This document shows, in pieces, positions 3,361 to 63,887 of a stretch of 64,000 nt of DNA; the first letter of the stretch is position 1, and every line of letters begins with the position of its first letter. The translations under genes were made by a program, and so were the position numbers. Source of the stretch: Dictyostelium discoideum (lineage: Eukaryota); assembly GCA_000004695.1 (NCBI GenBank), contig CM000155.2, forward strand, positions 3,200,001 through 3,264,000, given 5' to 3'. The notes under the pieces are model-generated. The model was not told the DNA's origin. It did not search any database and saw only the letters and a program-made list of their open reading frames with translations.

Positions 3361-3790
3361 ACAATTTTTAAAAAATAAATAATTATTTCCTTTTTTCAGT
3401 ATTAATAATAATAATAATATAATAATAATAATAATAATAATTTATTTGTTTTCTTTTTTTTTTTTTTTTTTTTAATTGTATATTAATTCTAAGTTTTAAT
3501 AGATATATTAGTTTTAATATATCTCCAATAATTACTCCAACTATCGATAAATCCAATTAAAAAAAAAAAAAAAACAAAGATGATACTCCCAACAATCCAT
3601 TTTGTATTATTTTATTATTGGAAATTGATTGATTTTATTTGGTGATGTAAAAATAATTTGAAGTACAATACCTGATAATAATGGTTCATCTGATTCTTCT
3701 TTAATTATTTGTCCTGTGAATGTTAAACATTATTTATTATAGACAAAGAGGTTTTCTGCATTAACAGTAACTGGAATTAGAACGATAGGA

Positions 3791-3866
3791 GTTATCACAA
3801 CAACGAAAGATTTTTACACTAACTTAGATCTAAGTTAGTGTAAAAATCGTTCGTTGTTGTGATAAC
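3791..3866. repeat. 76-bp near-perfect palindrome (38-bp arms, 1 mismatch, centred on AGATCT), followed by a GC-richer tail to about 4030 with CCAATGG/CAGTGGCAA motifs
   Basis: gttatcacaacaacgaaagatttttacactaacttaga|tctaagttagtgtaaaaatcgttcgttgttgtgataac, read directly from the sequence. The local composition is far less AT-rich than the flanks. Confidence 0.85.
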
Positions 3867-4160
3867 CCGATTCACTAGCATGGTTCCAATGGTAGTACTA
3901 GCATGGGTTCAGTGGCAATAACTTGGATCCAATGGCAACTCAAACAAGAATCCCATAACAGCACTAACTTTAATATAATGGCAGCACTGACTAACTCGGA
4001 TCTAAATAGGGTAATACCACTGCTATAAAAGACTAATTAAGTTTATTCAAATGGTTTAATCAAATTTTTTACATTAAATTTTTCTTTTGTTTAATCCATA
4101 TGCTTAGTTTAATTGACTTCCTTCCAAAAAAAAAAAAATAGAATAAACATTCCACCATAT

Positions 4161-51576: not shown

Positions 51577-53028
51577 ATGGGAGAAATTAATAATAATAAA
51601 GAAATAAATGAAAAAGATGATGAAATTAATAATAAAAGATTAAAATATGAAGGATTTATAAAAAAAGAAAAAAAGAAAAAACAAAAGATTGATCATTCAA
51701 TACCATTAAAAGAGAAACCAACTCAAGAAGATATTGATTCCCATAGTGAATGTTTATTTTGGATTGTAAATAAAAAAAAGCATAGAGCTGAATTTTGTAA
51801 ATATAAAAGAGCAAAAGATTCAATACTTTGTAATCATCATAAACCAATTGATCAAATATCTTCAGAACCGCAACCGCAACTAACTGATTATAATGGGGAC
51901 GATGTCACTGAAAATAATAATAATTCTACTACTACCACCACAGCCACTACCCAAGATGATAATTCCAAACCAAAAGAAAGAAAAAGAATACATTGTCCAT
52001 TAAATCCAACTCAGTATGTATTTTTTTTTATTTTTTTTATTCTATTTTTAGAATTAGTATTTATATTAATAATTTTTTTTTAAAAAAAAAAAAAATAGTA
52101 TTATTTATGAATGTAAATTACAAAAACATTTAAAAGCATGTCCAAATGCAAAAGTTGGTCAAAAGAATGCACACATTGAATTATCAAAAAAAGAACCATA
52201 TTATAAAGAGAATATAAATGATTTAAATGAAAATGTAAAATTAACATTAGAACCAATAATTTTATCACAAGTTTCAACTGAAAATTTAATTAATATCTCT
52301 ATTAAATTGGATCAATTCTTTGAAAAATTCTTTAAAAATGAAATTCAATCTTTAAATCAAACACATAAATCTTTTGATAAAATTTTTAATTCAGAGTATG
52401 TAATATTTAAATATATCATCACCTATAATAACAGCAGCAACAACAACAATATATTATTAATTGGAAAATAACTTATAATTTATTATTTATTATTAATATT
52501 AATATTATTATTTTAATTTTTAAAAAAAAAAAAATTAAAAAAATAGTCAACAATTAAAACATATTCAACAAGAATCATCAATTATAAATTTATTAGAAAA
52601 TAGTAATCTTTATAATTCAGATAATGTTTATTTAGAGTTTGGGGCAGGATCAGGTAAATTAAGTAACCATATATTTATGTCACATGAAAAGAAATCAGGT
52701 CATATTTTAATTGATAGAATGAAATTTAGATCATTAAAAAAAGTAGATAGATTAATAAAGAATGAAAAAGGTTGTCATCATTTCTCTAGACTTTTAATTG
52801 ATATTAGACATTTAAATCTATCAAATCTATCAATACTTGAAGAGAAACCATTCGTTATCACATCAAAACATCTTTGTGGTTGTGCAACTGATTTCACATT
52901 AGATTCAATTTTTAATCTTTTAAATAATTCAAATGAAAAAGTTAATAATAATTTTAAAGGAATTGGTATTGCAACTTGTTGTCATCATATTTGTAATTTT
53001 AATACTTATTCAAGTAAGTTTTTTTTAA

Positions 53029-53077
<49 letters not shown>

Positions 53078-53485
53078 TTTTAATATTTTTATATTTTTCT
53101 ATTTATAGATCAATCATATTTAAAAGATCAATTAAATATTACACCATTAGAATTTCAATTAATTTGTTCGATTAGTAGTTGGGCAACAATTGATGAAAAT
53201 AAATGTAATAATGATGATGATGATAATGAAGTTGAAGAAGATGATGAATTAATTAAAAAAGATAAAAAAGAAAAAAAAGAATTTGAAAATCAATTAAAGA
53301 TTGAATTTAATAAACAAGATGTATTTAGTATAAAAAGAAAAGAGGAATTAGGATATAAAGCAAAGAGATTAATTGATTATGGTAGATATTTATTTATTAA
53401 AGAAAAATTAAATTTACCAAATACAAAATTTTGGATTTATACAAATCAATCAAAAGAAAATTTATTTTTAGTTTCAAATAAATAA
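51577..53485 (+). CDS. tRNA 2'-O-methyltransferase TRM13 (CCDC76) homolog, 4 exons
   Basis: Exons approx 51577..52016, 52099..52395, 52547..53013 and 53109..53485. zf-TRM13 CCCH region CLFWIVNKKKHRAEFCKYKRAKDSILCNHH. CHHC U11-48K-type finger spanning intron 1: HCPLNPT|HIIYECKLQKHLKACP. Methyltransferase core LEFGAGSGKLSNHI...IDRMKFR...HLCGCATD. Confidence 0.75.
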
Positions 53486-53626
53486 ATTAAAAAATTAATT
53501 TAAAATTAATTAAATAATTTATTTAATTGTTAAATTGTTTAATAATATAGATGAATTATTTATATTTTTTTTTTTTTTTTTTTTAAAAAATTTTTTAAAA
53601 AGTTTTTTTTATTTTATTTTTTTTTG

Positions 53627-55171
53627 TTAAAGAATTGTTGGTAAAGAATCGTAACCATTTGTAGCAGGTAAAGTTTCTCTTTTCGAATAATAGGGTTCAA
53701 GTACTACATCTTTAGGGAAATTTCTGAGACGTGGTTCACCTGTTGATACATCGATAGTGAGTTGAAGTATTTTTGTAAATTGAGGACATTCTGAAAGAAA
53801 ATCTGGAAGGGTTTTCTTTGCACCAGCAGTATCATCAGCCTTTACTAAATAATGACGAATACGTTTTTCAGGATCGGGATCATCTACTTTATAGCCAACT
53901 GCGAAATGGCCAGCATGACGTTCACTGAAACGAATTAAAAAGGTGCCTTGCTCTTCATTACGAAGGGCTTCTTCGACACTTTGACGAGAAATGAAACCAT
54001 AGATGAGACCCGATTGCCACATGGAGCAAACGTGACGTTGATAACGTAGTTTTTGTAAACCTTTACCAAACCAAATCCAAAATGAATCAAAACTAGATTG
54101 AGGGATCATTGGTTTACTTCCGAAAAATTGATGATGAATGTACATGAGTTCGTGACGTGATAGGTAACGAGTTGGTTTCATAAAGTCTTGACGAGTTGCA
54201 CGCAAGAAATGTCTTTGAAGTTTATTGGCATAGGAAGCCCAAGGTATTTCATTGTTATTTCCAAAGGAATCTTTCTTTAGGAGAGTACCATCTGATTCTT
54301 CATATTGACATTCATTGGTGATAACGATGAATGGTGAGGTTGGTGGTGATTCAATGTTTACAGCGGTACCACCAACCACTTGAACTTGCATTCCAAATTT
54401 GAGGGTTACTGGATTCTTTCTGGTACCATTTAAAAATTTGAGATGATATTTTGCCAAACGATTGGTTTCATCCATTGATACCACCTCTGTTTCAATGGTT
54501 TTTGGAGATGAAGAAGTCTTTGAGCCTTGTTGATTCTCAACGATCATTGTTGCTCTAACTTTACCGATCATTTGTAACTCTGTACGAGTGCCACAAAGTA
54601 ATTGAACGACTACTGGATCATCTTCCAATGGTTTACACTTTGTAATTACCATTGGGAATGGTTGTTCAATCACTACCAAAGCAGCGATAGTTGGTGGTGG
54701 ATTTTGTGGACGAACTAAAAGTTGTAACTCTTCATGATACAATTCCAATTGAATACTTTGAATGGTGAGTTCATGTAAAAGGAAGATAACATTTCTAATC
54801 TCTGGTGGTGATAAAACAAAGGTTTGGTCAATTTGTTGAAGTGAGGTGATCTCTGCATCAATTTGTTTTTTCAATGTATTTTGTTCATTATCCAACATTT
54901 GGAATGTCTCTTTTTGTGGGTGTGCCAACACTTGTTTTTGTACAATTTTCATCTTATCCAATTGTTCCTTTTGAGCCAAATGTAACTTTAAACATTCATT
55001 AATGATTTGTTGATGTGGTTGTAATACATTTCCATATGGTGTATTTATTAAAAGATGATCTGGTAATGGCAAATTATTATTATTACAATGTTGAATTGAT
55101 GATAATATATTTGGTTCAATTATATCATCTGGTGATCCAATTCCATTTGAGCTATTACTACTATTACTACC

Positions 55172-55203
<32 letters not shown>

Positions 55204-55457
55204 TATTATTGATATGGGTTGGAATTGGATGTAAATGTTGTGGTTCAACTGGTAATTGATGTAAAATTGGTAATTCAATTTGTTGCATTTGTGGTTGTGT
55301 TGGTTGATTTAATTGATTTTGATGATTTAATTGATTTTGATTATTTAATTGATTTTGATTATTTAATTGATTTTGATTATTTAATTGATTTTGGTGATTT
55401 AATTGATTTTGATGATTTTGATGAATTTGTTGGTGTTGTTGGTGTTGTTGTTGTTGG

Positions 55458-55522
<65 letters not shown>

Positions 55523-56305
55523 TTGTTGATGATGTTGTTGTTGTTGTTGTTGTTGTTGTTGCTGTTGTTGTTGTTGTTGTTGTTGTTGTTGCTGTTGTTG
55601 CTGTTGTTGTTGTTGTTGTTGTTGTTGTTGGAATTGGAATTGTTGTTGTTGTAAATGTTGTTGTTCTAATTGTTGTTGTTGAATTTGTGCTTGTTGTGCT
55701 TGAATTTGTGCTTGTTGTTGTTGAATTTGTTGGGCCTGTTGTTGTTGAATTTGTGCTTGATCTATTTGTGGGTTGTTAACTTGTTGAATTGGTTGCAATT
55801 GTTGTTGTAATAATTGCTGTTGTTGAATTTGTGCACCATCAATAGTTTGGAAATATGGATCAATGTTAACCTTTTTTTTTTTTATTTTTTTTGTTTTATT
55901 TTGAAATTTAAAAAAAAAAAGACAAATTAATAATATGAAACAAGAATTTAATTTAAAATAGAAAAATAAAAAAAAATATCCAAGTAAAAATAAAAAAATG
56001 TTTATTAGAAAAAAAAAAAAAACTAATAAAAAAAAAAAATTAATAAAAAAAAAAAAAAAAAAAAAAGAAAAGATATTTTTTTTTTTTTTTTTCAAAAATC
56101 CATTATCATAATCAAAACCCTTTGAAAAAAAAAAATAAAAAAATAAAAAAAAATAAAATAAAATAATGGATGACACTTACAGAATTTTGTCCAATATTTT
56201 GTTGGTGTTGGGTTTGTTGACCTGTTACGTCAGTATAAATTGGGTATGAGTAAGGAATGTTTGAATTTTGTTGAACCCCAATTGCTGGTGGAGTTGCTGT
56301 ATTAA

Positions 56306-56375
<70 letters not shown>

Positions 56376-57173
56376 GGTATTATTGTTTATGTTGTTATTG
56401 GTGGATATAGGTGAAGATGCGTTAGAAAGTGGTGATGTTGCTATACCTTCAGTTTTCACTGTCACTGTTGTGGTATTTGAATTATATATTGGTTGTTGTG
56501 ATTGTGGTTGTGGTAGTTGTGGTTGGGGTTGTGGTTGTGGTTGTGGTTGTTGATTCTGTTGGTTTTGTTGATTCTGTTGTCCTGTTCCGTTACTTTTTAA
56601 TTATTAAATTATTAAAATATTAAATAAATTTGGAATTGGAATTTAAAGAAAAAAAAAAAAAAAAATTAAATAACAAATAAAAAAAATTTATTATTAAAAA
56701 AAAAAAAAAATAAAAAAAAAATAAAAATAAAAAAAAAATAAAAAAATAAAAATAATAATTATTTGAAATTGAAAATCATTTTAAACAAAAATAAATTTTA
56801 AAATTAAAATTAAATTAATTAAAAAAAATATATATGTTTATAAAAATTATTTGAAAATTATAATTTTAGTAATAAAAGTCAAATTTTATAATAATAGGGT
56901 TAATTATAATAAAAAAAAAAAATAAAAAAAAAAAAAATAAAAAAAAAAAAAAAATAAAAATTTGAAAAAACACCATATTAGTATAAGATTTTTTGATTGT
57001 TTTTTTTTGGTAGATATTTTGGGTGATAATTACTCTAAAAATGTCATTAATGACATTAAATCATCATTTGTGGTGTTGAATCCATCACTTGAAAATTCTG
57101 GTTCTTCTTGTTTTACTTCAAAAGTGTTGCTAATTGCATCTAAAGGTCTCTTTTTTGGATTGTTATTGCTCAT
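53627..57173 (-). CDS. dstC: STAT family transcription factor (Gln-rich N-terminus, coiled-coil, DNA-binding domain, SH2, C-terminal Tyr). The 3-exon model gives 931 aa, which fits Dictyostelium STATc
   Basis: Exon 3 (55870..53627; acceptor AG|GTTAACATTGATCC) contains the SH2 domain [43 protein letters not shown] and the tail ...[11 protein letters not shown]. Exon 2 (56592..56181; donor GTAAGT) has no in-frame ATG. The only upstream minus-strand ATG whose donor phase fits the phase-2 acceptor at 56593 is the exon 57173..57034, [46 protein letters not shown], with donor GTAATT. The dstC symbol rests on recalled length (931 aa) and a Tyr near position 922. It is not verified. Confidence 0.6.
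55430..55640 (-). repeat. (CAA)n/(CAG)n coding microsatellite encoding a run of about 70 Gln in the STAT protein
   Basis: Plus strand shows (TTG)n with occasional CTG. Confidence 0.9.
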
Positions 57174-57477
57174 TTTGATTGGTGATGATAATTATTATTA
57201 TATAGTATTGATATTACTATAATTTTAAAAGTAGTAATTATGTTTATTTCTTAATATTAGTATTGATAAATAATGTTTGTTGTGAAATATGGTTTTTTTT
57301 TTGATTGAATATCGTAATAATTATTTTGAATTATTTTAAATTATTATTATTTTTTTTATTAAAAAAAAAAATTATTATTATTTTTTGAAAATGTACAAAG
57401 TGAATATCTCTAGATGTTTTTTTTTTTTTTTATTATAAATTTTGATTATCGTAATAGCTTATTATTATGGTGGGGGT

Positions 57478-57523
<46 letters not shown>

Positions 57524-58958
57524 ATTGTAAATATGTTTATTATTAGTGTGGTGGTGGTGTGTGAGTGCGTTTATTTTTTATTTTTTAATTTTTTTTAATT
57601 TTTTTTTTTTTTATTGGACTGTATAGAATTTAAAAGTATACAATATGCCCTGATAACTATTTTTAATTTTATTAATAAAAGTATAACATGCCCTGATAAT
57701 AATTATTATTTTTAAAAAAAAAAAAAAAAAAAAAAAGTTTTTTGAAAAAAAAAAAAAATTAAATTAAATTTTTTTTTATTTTTTTTTATTTATTTATTTT
57801 TTTTTATTTTTTTTTATTTTTTTTATTTTTTTTTTTGCTTTGTTAACGTGCAGAGGTTGTGAGAGTGTGATTTGAAAATTACTTTAACTGTAAATTTTTT
57901 TTTTGAGTTGCCAAAATAATAAAAAAAAAAAATAAAAAAAAAAAGATATCCAAAAAAAAAAAAGTTGTCCAAAAAAAAAATAAAAAAGTTGTCAAAAAAA
58001 AAAAATAAAAAAAAATAATTAAAATAATTTTCTAAACTTACAGAAAAAAAAAAAAAATATATAAAAATATGGAACTAATGGTTCAAATTCTGGAAAAAAT
58101 GAGAAATGAATTAATAAATGTATTATAGTTTTTTTTTTTTTTTTTCCTTTTTTTTTTTTTTTTTTTTTTTTAAATTATTCTTTATTTTATCCACTTCAAA
58201 ATTTTTCATACAATATTATTACAAACTAAAAAAACTAATAGGTTTTGATGGTTTGTTTCTGATGGTGATGAAATTATTTTGATTCTCGAACCAAAAATAT
58301 AGGCTAGGATGTGGAAAAATAATTTAAAAATTTTTTAAAAAAAAAAATATATAAGAAAAAAAAAAAAATTTTTAAACATAAAAAAAAAATAAAAAAATAA
58401 TAAAAAAAGTAATAATAATAAAAAAAAAAAAAAATTAAATAAATAAAAAACAAATAAAAAAAAAATATTAAATAAATAAATAAATTTTTTTTATTTCCAA
58501 TTTATTTTTTTATTTTTTTTATTTTTTTTATTTTTTATTTTTTTTTTCACCATTCAAAAAAAGATGGGGGTAAATAGAGAGACTTACAAAAATATGAAAA
58601 GAATGATGATAATTTTATGATGTTTTATAAATTAATAAGAAAATAAATAATTAAATAAATAAATAAATATATTTTAAAAAATAAAATAAAATATAAAAAA
58701 ATAAAATAAAATAAAACAAAAAAAGATATCTACAATGATATATGGTGTGAAATTAAATAATTATAATATAGACAAAGTATACAATAACGCTTTAAAATTT
58801 ATTTACAAATAAATAATATATAATATATAATTAAAATTAGAAAATTTAAAAAAAAATTTTGAGAAAAATAAAAAAAAAATAAAAAAATGGTGCTTTTGAA
58901 AGAGAGGGGGGTTTTTAAATGTGTATATATATGATAAAAATCATCTGAAGTGTTTTGA

Positions 58959-59049
58959 TNNNNNNNNNNNNNNNNNNNNNNNNNNNNNNNNNNNNNNNNN
59001 NNNNNNNNNNNNNNNNNNNNNNNNNNNNNNNNNNNNNNNNNNNNNNNNN
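58959..59049. other. Run of 91 N: assembly gap immediately upstream of the 59115 gene
   Basis: Literal n characters. Flanked by poly(A)/poly(T). Confidence 0.99.
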
Positions 59050-59114
59050 NNNNNNNNNNTTTTTTTTTTTTTTTTTTTTTTTGTGACTACTTCGCACAAA
59101 CACAACCACAAAAA

Positions 59115-61208
59115 ATGAATGACCAAGATTTATTGTTTTTTAAAGTATTTAGAAATAAATTTATTAATAGGATTTTATTTGAAAAAATCAAACAACCAAA
59201 CAGACAATTATATTATACAACATATAGTTTTTATGATTTCCCTTTAGAATTAGTTATAAAAACACAAAATCAACAAGTTTTTAAAGAGAAATTAAATCTT
59301 TTTAATTTATATAAAAATAAACAAAAATTCATTAATAATAATAAAATTGAAATTAAAAGAGCATACCAATATTCTTTAGATTTTAATATTGAAATATTTG
59401 AATTAATATTAGTATGGAAAGAATTGGAAATTGATTTATTTATTGAATTTTTTAAATTATTTAAAAAAGAAATTGAAAAGGAATTAAAACAATCTTCAAA
59501 AGAAATTATTAAAAATTTACTTGAAAAATCATCAAAAAAAGAATATAATAATATAAATTTAAATATTTTAAATTATTTATTTAAAGAATTTTCAGAAATT
59601 AAAATTTTTTTTATTTTTCAAATTAAAAATCATGCAAAGAGATATACAGTACATCAATCATTTTCAAAATTATTAAATGATTTAAATAAAGAATTAATAA
59701 TTAAATTTGGTGAATATTCAGGTTGTTATAACAACGAAAAAGATGATGATAACAGTGAAGATTTCTTTAAACTGGCAAATAATTATCTTTATGAAATCAT
59801 TTTTAAAGATGATGAAAATGGTCAAAACCAATTTTACTCAAAATTATTATCAATATTTCCAAAAACTGAAAAAACCAATTTACATCACACTATACCACTA
59901 TTTATTAACTTGTTTGAAAAATTAATTCAAAGAAATAATTTCAAATTATTGAAATTAATTTTTTCAAAATTAAATAATATTAATGTATCAGAGAATGTTG
60001 ATGAAATGATCTCAATTTTTAATTTCAAAATTTCAAGTTGTTTTTTTGTTTTAAACACTGAAATCTTTAATACACCAACAACTCAAGATTCTGAAATGAT
60101 GCAATTATTTAGTGCAACACTACAAAAAAAAATATTTAATTCAGTTTTAAGTTTTGGTTTTAAAAAATTTTATATTAATGGTCCAGATTATTATGATTTC
60201 ACCACAACACAATTTTATAAAAATTTTTCAAATTTTCCATCAATATATAGTGGTGATTTAATTTTATCTTCACGTAGTTTTAAATTTAAACAAACATGTT
60301 TAAGATCTTCAACATCAAATAATAATAATAATGAAAAGATTTTAAATAATTGTATGGATATTGAATATTATAAAAGTAATTTTTTTAATGAAAATTTAAA
60401 TTGGTTTGATGTTTATATTGGAAAATTTGGTTTTGATATAAAAAGATTAAAAGAAATCATTGAATTAGGTTATTATGATATGATAAATCATATATTTAAA
60501 AAAGGGTATTATAAAATAATAGATTTTAAAAATAGTAATAAATTATTACATGATTTATTTATTACAATATTATTATCAAGTGATAATTTAAATAATAGTA
60601 GTTTACAATTATTAATTAATTTTATATCACCAATGGTAAATGATATTATAAAATCAAAACAAAGGGAATTCTTTTTCAATGAATCAATACCAATTGATAG
60701 ATTAAAAAGAATTGAATATTTTAAAATTATTCAAAAAATTGAAGGATATCATGAAATGAAATTAAATAATGATATGGAAATATTAAAAAACCCAAATTTA
60801 TATGTTAATAATTCATTTCAAATTAATTATTTAAAGAAAAGATTAAATCAATTTGAACAATCTCAATTTAAAAATTTATTATATTTTAGTTTAAAAAGTA
60901 AGAATTTTAAATTTATTTCAAAGTGTATTTCATTTTTGGTGAAAAACGGTCAAGATAGGTTAATTAATATAATAGATATTTTAAAATTACTTTTATTTTC
61001 AAGTATTGGAAAATTTGAAGGAAATTTAAAGTTTTTCTTTTACATAATTAAAGTTTTCAATTACCAATTACCATTTAAATCAACTAATGATATTGAGAAT
61101 TATGAAAACTTTATTTTACAAGATTTGGATTATGATTATCAATTATTTGATTTAACATTTGGTATAAATGAATTTAATAATTTCAATTTATTTATTACAT
61201 TCCTCTAA
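59115..61208 (+). CDS. Hypothetical Asn/Lys/Phe-rich protein (697 aa), member A of a tandem paralog family
   Basis: Long intronless ORF MNDQDLLFFKVFRNKFINRILFEKIKQPNRQLYYTTYSFYDFPLELVIK.... No recognisable domain. About 65-70% identical to 61758..63887. Confidence 0.55.
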   Translation: MNDQDLLFFKVFRNKFINRILFEKIKQPNRQLYYTTYSFYDFPLELVIKTQNQQVFKEKLNLFNLYKNKQKFINNNKIEIKRAYQYSLDFNIEIFELILVWKELEIDLFIEFFKLFKKEIEKELKQSSKEIIKNLLEKSSKKEYNNINLNILNYLFKEFSEIKIFFIFQIKNHAKRYTVHQSFSKLLNDLNKELIIKFGEYSGCYNNEKDDDNSEDFFKLANNYLYEIIFKDDENGQNQFYSKLLSIFPKTEKTNLHHTIPLFINLFEKLIQRNNFKLLKLIFSKLNNINVSENVDEMISIFNFKISSCFFVLNTEIFNTPTTQDSEMMQLFSATLQKKIFNSVLSFGFKKFYINGPDYYDFTTTQFYKNFSNFPSIYSGDLILSSRSFKFKQTCLRSSTSNNNNNEKILNNCMDIEYYKSNFFNENLNWFDVYIGKFGFDIKRLKEIIELGYYDMINHIFKKGYYKIIDFKNSNKLLHDLFITILLSSDNLNNSSLQLLINFISPMVNDIIKSKQREFFFNESIPIDRLKRIEYFKIIQKIEGYHEMKLNNDMEILKNPNLYVNNSFQINYLKKRLNQFEQSQFKNLLYFSLKSKNFKFISKCISFLVKNGQDRLINIIDILKLLLFSSIGKFEGNLKFFFYIIKVFNYQLPFKSTNDIENYENFILQDLDYDYQLFDLTFGINEFNNFNLFITFL

Positions 61209-61757: not shown

Positions 61758-62033
61758 ATGGAAATTGTTTTTAACACACAAAAAATGGATGACCAAGGTT
61801 TATTGTTTTTCAAAGTGTTTAGAAATAAATATATTAATAAGATTTTATTTGAAAAAATCAAACAATCAAATAGACAATTATATTATACAACATATAGTTT
61901 TTATGATTTCCCTTTAGAATTAGTTATAAAAATACAAAATCAACAGGTTTTTAAAGAGAAATTAAATCTTTTTAAATTATTTAAAAATAATATCGAAAGT
62001 TCCAAATTTAATAATAATAATAATGGTTTTATT

Positions 62034-62118
<85 letters not shown>

Positions 62119-63048
62119 TTGAAATTAAAAGAGCATATAGATGTTATATAGATTTTAAAATTGAATTATTTGAATTAATATTAGTATGGAAAGAATTGGA
62201 AATTAATTTATTTATTGAATTTTTTAATTTATTTAAAAAAGAAATTGAAAAGGGATTAAAACAATTTTCAAAAGAGATTTTTAAAAATTTACTTGAAAAA
62301 TCATCAAAAAATGAATATAATGATTTAAATTTAAAAATCATTGATTATTTATTTAAAGAAATGCCACAATTAACATCTAAATTTATTATGGAAATTCATT
62401 ATAAAACAATCGATTCACCAATTGAATCATTTTCAAAATTATTAAATAATTTAAAAAAAGAATCAATAATTGAATATAAAGAATATTTAGGTGGCGATAT
62501 TAAATATTCAAATGGTGATGATTTCTTTAAACTTGCAAATAGTCATCTTTATGAAATCATTTTTAAAGATGATGAAAAGAGTCAAAATCAATTTTACTCA
62601 AAAGTATTATCAAAATTTCCTAAAATTAAAAAATCAATTCCAAATCAAAAATCACCATTTATTAACTTGTTTGAAAAATTAATTCAAAGAAATAATCTCA
62701 AATTGTTGAAATCAATTTTTAAAAAATTAAATAACTTTAATGTGTCAGAGAATGTGGATGAAGTTATGATACCAATTTTTAAATTTAAAATTTCAAGTTA
62801 TTTTCTTATTCCCATAAACACTGAATTATTTAATATTCCAACTACTCAAGATTCTGAAATTATGCAATTATTTAGTGCAATCATACAATCTAAATTACTT
62901 CCAAATAAATCATACCCATTTAAAACAAGTATCACATTAATTATCAATGGTCCAGATTATTATGATTTCATATTATTAAATCATGGTCATAATTCTAGTT
63001 TTAAAATTAAATCAACATGCTTAAGATCTTCAACATCAAATAATAATA

Positions 63049-63109
<61 letters not shown>

Positions 63110-63318
63110 TAACAACAATAATAATGAAAATATTTTAAATAATTATATGGATATTGAATATTATAAAAGTAGTATTTTTAATGAAAATTTAATTTGGTTT
63201 GATGTTTATTTTGAAAAGTTTGGTTTTGGTATAACAAGATTAAAAGATATTATTCAATTAGGTTATAACGAAATGATAAATCATATATTTAAAAAAGGAT
63301 ATTATAAATTTATAGATT

Positions 63319-63379
<61 letters not shown>

Positions 63380-63887
63380 TTTATTATTAGATTTGTTTAT
63401 GACATTATTATTATCAAGTTCACTACCGCTACCACTACCACCACCACTACAATTACTAATTAATTATATATTACCAATGGTAAATGATATTTTTAAATCA
63501 AAACAAAGAGAATTCTTTCTCAACGAATCAATACCAATTGATAGATTAAAAAGAACTGAATATTTTAAAATTATTCAAAGAATTCAAGGATATCATGAAA
63601 TGAAATTAAATAATGATATGGAAATATTAAAAAATTCAAATTTAAATTCTAATAATATTAATAAAAAATTTCAAATTCATAATTTAAAGAAAAGAATAAA
63701 TCAATTTGAAAATAATCATTTTCGTAATTTACTAATTTTCAGTTTAAAAAGTACAAATTTTAAATTAATTTCAAAATCTGTTAAATTAATGAAAAATAGT
63801 AGTGGTGGTGGTAGTGGTGGTGGCAGTGGTGGTAGAGGTAGAGGTAATTATGATAATTTAGTTAATTATATTATTAAATTTAAATAA
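61758..63887 (+). CDS. Hypothetical protein (709 aa), member B of the same tandem family, with poly-Asn and Gly-rich insertions. Its conserved C-terminal motif continues out of frame after the stop, so it may be frameshifted
   Basis: MDDQGLLFFKVFRNKYINKILFEKIKQSNRQLYYTTYSFYDFPLELVIK.... After the stop at 63885..63887, the +1 frame encodes NFFYLIKVFNYQLPFKSTKDINFLIDII, homologous to the C-terminus of copy A (FFYIIKVFNYQLPFKSTNDIENYE). The window ends at 64000. Confidence 0.5.

Follow-up and report, generated by a model that had tools for sequence, protein, structure and literature searches.

Structure of the gene at positions 53627 to 57173

The window analyzed here is a stretch of 64,000 nucleotides of Dictyostelium discoideum DNA (assembly GCA_000004695.1, contig CM000155.2, positions 3,200,001 to 3,264,000, forward strand), and all coordinates refer to it. 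Between positions 53627 and 57173, its minus strand carries what is almost certainly dstC (DDB_G0293532), a gene of three exons encoding STATc as a protein of 931 residues (Table 1). This structure had been proposed in an initial annotation, made by a first-stage reader from the raw sequence, and its exon coordinates, its sum of 46 + 1 + 137 + 747 = 931 residues and its first intron of 441 nt all proved exact. When joined, exons 57173..57034, 56592..56181 and 55870..53627 (140 + 412 + 2244 = 2796 nt) gave a single frame of 931 codons, in which the sole stop, a TAA, lies at the end.

Base composition distinguished the exons from their surroundings, as the flanks have a GC fraction of about 0.15 and exon 1 is a GC island (0.30) between stretches of 0.08 and 0.16. 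The donors read GA/GTAATT in intron 1 and TCT/GTAAGT in intron 2, and the acceptor is ...AAAAAG in both. The acceptor at 56592 is forced because the frame of exon 2 stays open for just three codons upstream of it. The boundaries of intron 2 rest on the shift of frame required from exon 2 to exon 3, the GTAAGT consensus donor, the GC content of 10% and homology, with the conserved stretch (L/I)DPxY(F/Y)x(T/P)IDGAQIQ resuming immediately after 55870.

The need for an upstream exon had been argued from a lack of in-frame ATGs in the two downstream exons. This held for exon 2 and for exon 3 up to its codon 194, but exon 3 as a whole contains 12, the earliest of which is residue 379 of the model. 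The ATG at 57173 had, further, been described as the only upstream one of suitable phase. Between 56593 and 60500, 12 ATG/GT first-exon combinations fit the phase, including sub-forms of exon 1 that use an alternative donor after 57055 or the inner ATGs at 57056 and 57047; all the others encode at most 12 residues. These alternative first exons were enumerated and set aside on the basis of conservation, splice consensus and GC content.

Table 1. Features of the dstC locus, in window coordinates (a slash marks an exon boundary)
Feature	Position	Strand	Description
Exon 1	57034..57173	-	ATG 57173..57171, context AAAATG; 46 codons + 2 nt (GA); GC 0.30
Intron 1	56593..57033	-	441 nt, phase 2, GTAATT...AAAAAG, 7.9% GC; splits Asp codon GA/T
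Exon 2	56181..56592	-	412 nt; Gln/Pro-rich start, psi-K-x-E motif, poly-Asn tract; without Met; GC 0.31
Intron 2	55871..56180	-	310 nt, phase 0, GTAAGT...AAAAAG, 10% GC
Exon 3	53627..55870	-	747 codons + TAA (53629..53627); Gln-rich region and all STAT domains; GC 0.34
dstC quantitative PCR amplicon	54393..54604	-	212 bp, convergent published primers (PMC3934975 Table 2)
Dict-STAT-coil (PF09267)	54692..55012	-	residues 471-577; E = 9.7e-39, 132.7 bits vs. cut-off 22
STATa_Ig DNA-binding (PF18214)	54320..54685	-	residues 580-701; E = 1e-48, 164.8 bits
EF-hand_12 linker (PF17901)	54038..54316	-	residues 703-795; E = 9.7e-39, 132.2 bits
SH2 (PF00017)	53825..54004	-	residues 807-866; phosphotyrosine-binding Arg831, codon 53932..53930
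Tyr924 codon	53651..53653	-	conserved tail TNGYDSL; predicted activating phosphorylation site, Y922 in the literature
KKRP basic cluster	57144..57155	-	residues 7-10; candidate nuclear import signal, putative function
Acidic-hydrophobic motif	57034..57068	-	residues 36-47; last codon (D) split by intron 1
VKTE	56448..56459	-	residues 92-95, K93; putative SUMOylation site (match to the psi-K-x-E consensus)
Gln/His tract	55427..55630	-	residues 265-332; 68 residues: 60 Q, 8 H; 57 CAA, 3 CAG
(AAT)23 perfect triplet repeat	56307..56375	-	poly-Asn, exon 2; longest perfect microsatellite of the gene
18-nt tandem repeat	55305..55418	-	6.3 copies; encodes (H/N)QNQLN repeats

Identity of the gene as dstC

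The two primers used for quantitative PCR of dstC, as listed in PMC3934975 (Table 2), each matched the window once and with 0 mismatches, at 54585-54604 (-) and 54393-54412 (+), inside exon 3. In line with this, the SH2 arginine (in the sequence FLIR) is residue 831 of the model, and it is numbered R831 in PMC4196871, whose construct "aa 463-932" is consistent with 931 codons plus a stop. The agreement at R831 requires that the N-terminus and both splice junctions together add up to the length of the protein sequence in use in the field. The STATc identity put forward in the initial annotation was borne out by the primers and by the published number of the SH2 arginine.

In a protein search with the full-length product, poly-Gln dominated the candidates (8000 scored, 5 matches), and the C-terminal 502 residues served as the query of a second search. 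The closest named homologues of this part were of the STATc type and 92-94% identical to it, while other dictyostelid STAT paralogues reached 41-43%. Neither the 931-residue model nor the 849-, 553- and 441-residue products of open reading frames (ORFs) alone, nor the 47-residue ORF of exon 1, had an exact entry in the protein collection searched.

Conservation of exon 1 in other dictyostelids

The STATc orthologues of Polysphondylium violaceum and Tieghemostelium lacteum are 92-94% identical to the window protein over the C-terminal 500 residues, and differ from it in having much shorter low-complexity regions. The P. violaceum protein (P0002, CYY_005806, 782 aa) starts MSNANPKKRPLE, at an ATG homologous to the start of dstC in the window, whereas that of T. 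lacteum (P0003, 694 aa, annotated as a "transcriptional repressor") begins at an inner Met, MSLMTFLDNG. The genomic loci of both species encode a homologue of exon 1, sharing the N-terminal peptide KKRPL.../NG, and in both an intron follows ...MTFL in the same GA/T Asp codon and in the same phase, with a length of 66 nt in P. violaceum and 358 nt in T. lacteum. Exon 1 had been called unannotatable, a description that is not supported: its homologue is part of the P. violaceum annotation, and the numbering of STATc has included it since at least 2014.

Further, four environmental contigs of the Joint Genome Institute (JGI), from different samples (L003-L006), encode a protein (P0001) in which MTFLDNGNGG is joined without an intron. 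These contigs are either derived from cDNA or reflect a precise loss of the intron; whichever the origin, the intron-free join makes the joined sequence of exons 1 and 2 the mature reading frame.

In codon-aligned comparisons of exon 1, differences at the first, second and third codon positions numbered 9/9/23 between D. discoideum and T. lacteum and 5/4/14 between P. violaceum and the JGI sequence, and every indel was a multiple of three. Third-position bias together with in-frame indels is the signature of translation, and it shows that exon 1 is under purifying selection.

Intron 2 is missing in P. violaceum and T. lacteum, where the gene span minus the coding sequence equals intron 1 alone. 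This points to a lineage-specific gain of intron 2 in dstC, or to its loss in these two species. Both of their STATc loci adjoin a dUTPase gene; no dUTPase counterpart was found in the window, and the flanking genes are not syntenic.

Alternative readings of the locus

A shorter N-terminus of the same gene was considered, in which translation starts at the inner ATG at 57056 or 57047 (MSLMTFLD...) or in which the donor after 57055 is used (a 119-nt exon ending ...NDDL). Both options fit the phase, and the T. lacteum annotation begins at the homologous inner Met. However, the 38 codons 5' of the inner Met are conserved as protein and change with a third-position bias, the P. violaceum protein starts at the homologue of the ATG at 57173, and the published R831 numbering requires the full frame of 931 residues. 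Moreover, with the donor after 57055 (GTCATT) the protein would lack MSLMTFL, a peptide that does not vary among four species and that runs unbroken through the JGI join. We therefore regard a shorter N-terminus as very unlikely. Even less can be said for a gene that consists of exon 3 alone, read from codon 379 (553 aa), with upstream "exons" that are chance open frames of low complexity. Every Pfam domain does lie downstream of residue 471, and several database orthologues are annotated at about 440-500 aa; but these short entries come from contigs of 1.5-2.2 kb or are truncated calls, exons 1 and 2 both stand out as GC islands, their peptides show conservation between genera that extends over the splice junction, and the literature numbering again needs 931 residues. 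Such a gene would be a most improbable reading.

That the gene encodes STATa, STATb or STATd is hardly credible either. The Pfam architecture is common to all four paralogues, but the dstC-specific primers match exactly and the best named homologues are, as described above, of the STATc type. Alignment of the C-terminal 502 residues with crystallised STATa (PDB 1UUR) gave E = 2e-111 over query residues 77-498, with approximately 50% identity by inspection; the protein is hence a Dictyostelium-type STAT, yet not STATa, since identity to the latter is just about 50%. In STATb, Leu replaces the SH2 arginine and the SH2 domain carries a 15-residue insertion (PMC3135261), while the SH2 domain of the window has the arginine and aligns to STATa without an insertion. 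STATb is excluded, as it carries Leu in place of Arg831. Of the evidence that the initial annotation had named as able to overturn its proposal, neither a different first exon in cDNA nor a best match to STATa or STATb with a length mismatch was encountered.

Several points nevertheless weigh against the assignment of the 931-residue model to dstC. Intron 2 lacks a counterpart in the two orthologous genomes, and on paper 14 other frame-preserving donor/acceptor pairs exist for it; these were set aside in view of conservation, splice consensus and GC content, and they would insert low-complexity poly-Phe/Lys sequence or remove conserved residues. The junctions as a whole rest on comparative and compositional evidence and not on D. 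discoideum cDNA, and no protein from the genus Dictyostelium was among the matches of either the full-length or the C-terminal 502-residue search. Finally, the phosphotyrosine is residue 922 in the literature and 924 in the model, whose residue 922 is Asn, although R831 agrees. The STATc literature that we searched uses Tyr922 throughout, and Y924 numbering was not found in it. An indel behind this difference is unlikely because the spacing from the Arg to the Tyr in the dstC model is identical to that in the orthologues. As the simplest explanation, Y922 looks like legacy numbering from the first cDNA.

Domains, tail tyrosine and N-terminal motifs

In the dstC product, a low-complexity N-terminal half (residues 1-470) is followed by a coiled coil, an Ig-like DNA-binding domain, an EF-hand linker, the SH2 domain and the C-terminal tyrosine. 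In a Pfam search of the model, all four domains scored far above their cut-offs, and the PF18214 and PF17901 domains both align to the STATa structure 1UUR.

The tail TNGYDSL is retained in the STATc orthologues, and its counterpart in the alignment with STATa is GGYEPL. Initially, the C-terminal tail had been described as having one Tyr only, placed nine residues before the end; Tyr924 is in fact the eighth residue from the end, with seven residues after it, and it is accompanied by Y911 and Y912, which lie 12-13 residues upstream.

Within the peptide encoded by exon 1, KKRPL(D/E) is invariant across four dictyostelid sequences. The acidic-hydrophobic motif is identical in four dictyostelids and recognisable in the distant amoebozoan STATs P0012, P0004 and P0024, with the versions NDDDLMNLITYLD, NDDEVMNLMNQYID and NQDFINLMHYLE. 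A V/I-K-x-E sequence occurs at an equivalent place, 20-50 residues past the acidic-hydrophobic motif, in 8 of the 9 amoebozoan STATc-like N-termini inspected. The two short motifs are conserved within an N-terminal half of STATc that is otherwise of low complexity.

Introns and repeat tracts

Published mean intron lengths for D. discoideum are 146 nt (PMC3188802) and 133 nt (PMC4683709), and the latter source gives a median of 104 nt. With 441 nt, intron 1 is about three times the published mean of 146 nt and about four times the median of 104 nt, and intron 2 (310 nt) is long too. The description of the first intron as unusually long holds in relation to these averages. The long first intron of dstC might conceal a regulatory element, but no evidence of one was found, and an Rfam scan (E <= 1) and a tRNA scan over 53000-59200 detected no RNA gene within the dstC introns. 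One candidate, the 10-mer AATATGGTGT, which follows an A-run both in the window (56970-56979) and in intron 1 of T. lacteum (L002, intron positions 150-159), was rejected as a conserved element. An equally long match containing G or C was obtained in 89 of 2000 dinucleotide shuffles, so that sharing of this 10-mer is not significant and is probably due to chance.

The approximately 70-residue poly-Gln tract encoded by CAA, noted earlier as a likely polymorphic microsatellite, turned out to be a tract of 68 Gln and His residues, with at most 32 Gln in a row and no more than 9 perfect CAA units in succession. Wild D. discoideum clones vary greatly in the triplet repeats of their coding sequences, according to a study that sampled perfect repeats of at least 26-27 units (PMC3460934). 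Polymorphism of the CAA tract is less likely than first implied, since interruptions break it up at intervals of 9 units or fewer. On repeat structure, the (AAT)23 repeat would be the likelier variable site in dstC and the better candidate for a polymorphic marker.

The STATc start position in other dictyostelids

Where dstC has its start codon, the T. lacteum sequence reads ATA (L002 3899-3901, LODT01000035) and the Polysphondylium-like JGI contigs read ATT (L003 933-935; same site in L004-L006). No in-frame ATG was found upstream of this position in T. lacteum or in the Polysphondylium-like contigs. The 32-37 codons from the ATA or ATT to the first inner Met (KKRPLE...NDD) show change of the coding type (8/9/22 and 5/4/12 at the three codon positions) and in-frame indels. 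The T. lacteum annotation of 694 aa, starting MSLMTFLD, probably lacks the true N-terminus.

Tentatively, and with the balance of likelihood against it, one may propose that STATc is translated from the near-cognate codons AUA and AUU in some dictyostelids, and that the exon 1 peptide and the psi-K-x-E motif form a required nuclear-transport or regulatory module.

The leaders 5' of the STATc start are also free of ATGs over 496 nt in P. violaceum (L001, ~3500-4000) and 549 nt in the JGI species (L003, ~385-932). From base composition, 4.4 and 5.0 ATGs, respectively, would be expected in the last 424 nt of the leader. In the window, the closest minus-strand ATG upstream of the dstC start is at 57689, where just 1.4 ATGs would be expected.

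Neighborhood of dstC

Roughly 300-400 nt 5' of the dstC start, at 57480-57600 (-), an A-run of about 50 nt lies between two C/A-rich blocks, ACGCACTCACACACCACCACCACAC and ACCACCCCCACC. These blocks are distinct from the background of 8-15% GC and could be promoter elements.

Divergently to dstC, and separated from it by a spacer of 1.9 kb, are two intron-less ORFs in tandem, 59115-61208 (+) and 61758-63887 (+), which encode 697 and 709 aa. Neither has a Pfam match. Their N-termini are near-identical, with the shared sequence DQ(D/G)LLFFKVFRNK.IN.ILFEKIKQ.NRQLYYTTYSFYDFPLELVIK, and the pair apparently represents the tandem duplication of a gene specific to Dictyostelium. On the other side, an ORF fragment at 52677-53108 (+) matches Methyltransferase TRM13 (PF05206) with E = 6e-38 over profile positions 45-152 of 257. 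Judging by this match, the fragment is an exon belonging to a tRNA methyltransferase gene, whose orientation is convergent with dstC at the 3' end of the latter.

Relation to known STAT systems

Work on STATc since 2001 has included its cloning, knock-out, tagging and mutation, and the gene has been known from cDNA since that year. The gene model and the identification as STATc are correct, but both the gene and its N-terminus were already known, and the result mainly validates the rebuilding of a spliced gene from raw sequence by the first-stage reader. As the latter had anticipated, callers based on ORFs alone miss the true N-terminus, and N-terminally short orthologue models are common. Truncated annotations, such as the T. 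lacteum model and many entries of 440-500 aa, lose the conserved exon 1 peptide, and comparisons of STAT N-termini need full-length models.

In the STATc literature, the protein is described as a factor that lies latent in the cytoplasm. Under hyperosmotic stress, or in response to the polyketide DIF-1, the phosphatase PTP3 is inhibited, and the tail tyrosine is then phosphorylated by Pyk2 and Pyk3, which are tyrosine-kinase-like enzymes (STATc literature). The resulting reciprocal SH2-phosphotyrosine dimer accumulates in the nucleus, where it represses ecmA and activates stress genes, driving about 20% of the osmotic-stress response (STATc literature). Exon 1 would supply the true N-terminus, and its KKRP cluster and acidic-hydrophobic motif, with the hydrophobic stretch LMSLMTFL, probably act in nuclear transport. 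Nuclear accumulation has reportedly been mapped to the N-terminal-proximal 46 residues. This region would correspond to the 46 complete codons of exon 1, which we take as a lead rather than a result.

The window gene and D. discoideum STATc agree in the primers, R831, tail tyrosine motif and architecture, with a length of 931 codons plus stop that is consistent with the published construct, and differ just in the number of the tyrosine (Y924 vs. Y922). STATa (PDB 1UUR/1UUS) has the same four-domain core and the same C-terminal GY(D/E)xL motif as the window protein, but is a paralogue in its own right, whose inputs (cAMP through cAR1) and targets differ from those of STATc. With the metazoan STAT1-6, STATc shares the SH2 domain and the tail tyrosine for reciprocal dimerisation, a latent cytoplasmic state and nuclear accumulation, and the SH2 region of the window matches STAT5 and STAT6 with E values of about 1e-9 to 1e-11. 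STATc differs from them in having neither the metazoan N-domain nor the C-terminal transactivation domain, and in the EF-hand fold of its linker. Activation also differs, as it proceeds through tyrosine-kinase-like enzymes and inhibition of a phosphatase in the case of STATc, and through JAKs in that of the metazoan STATs (literature).

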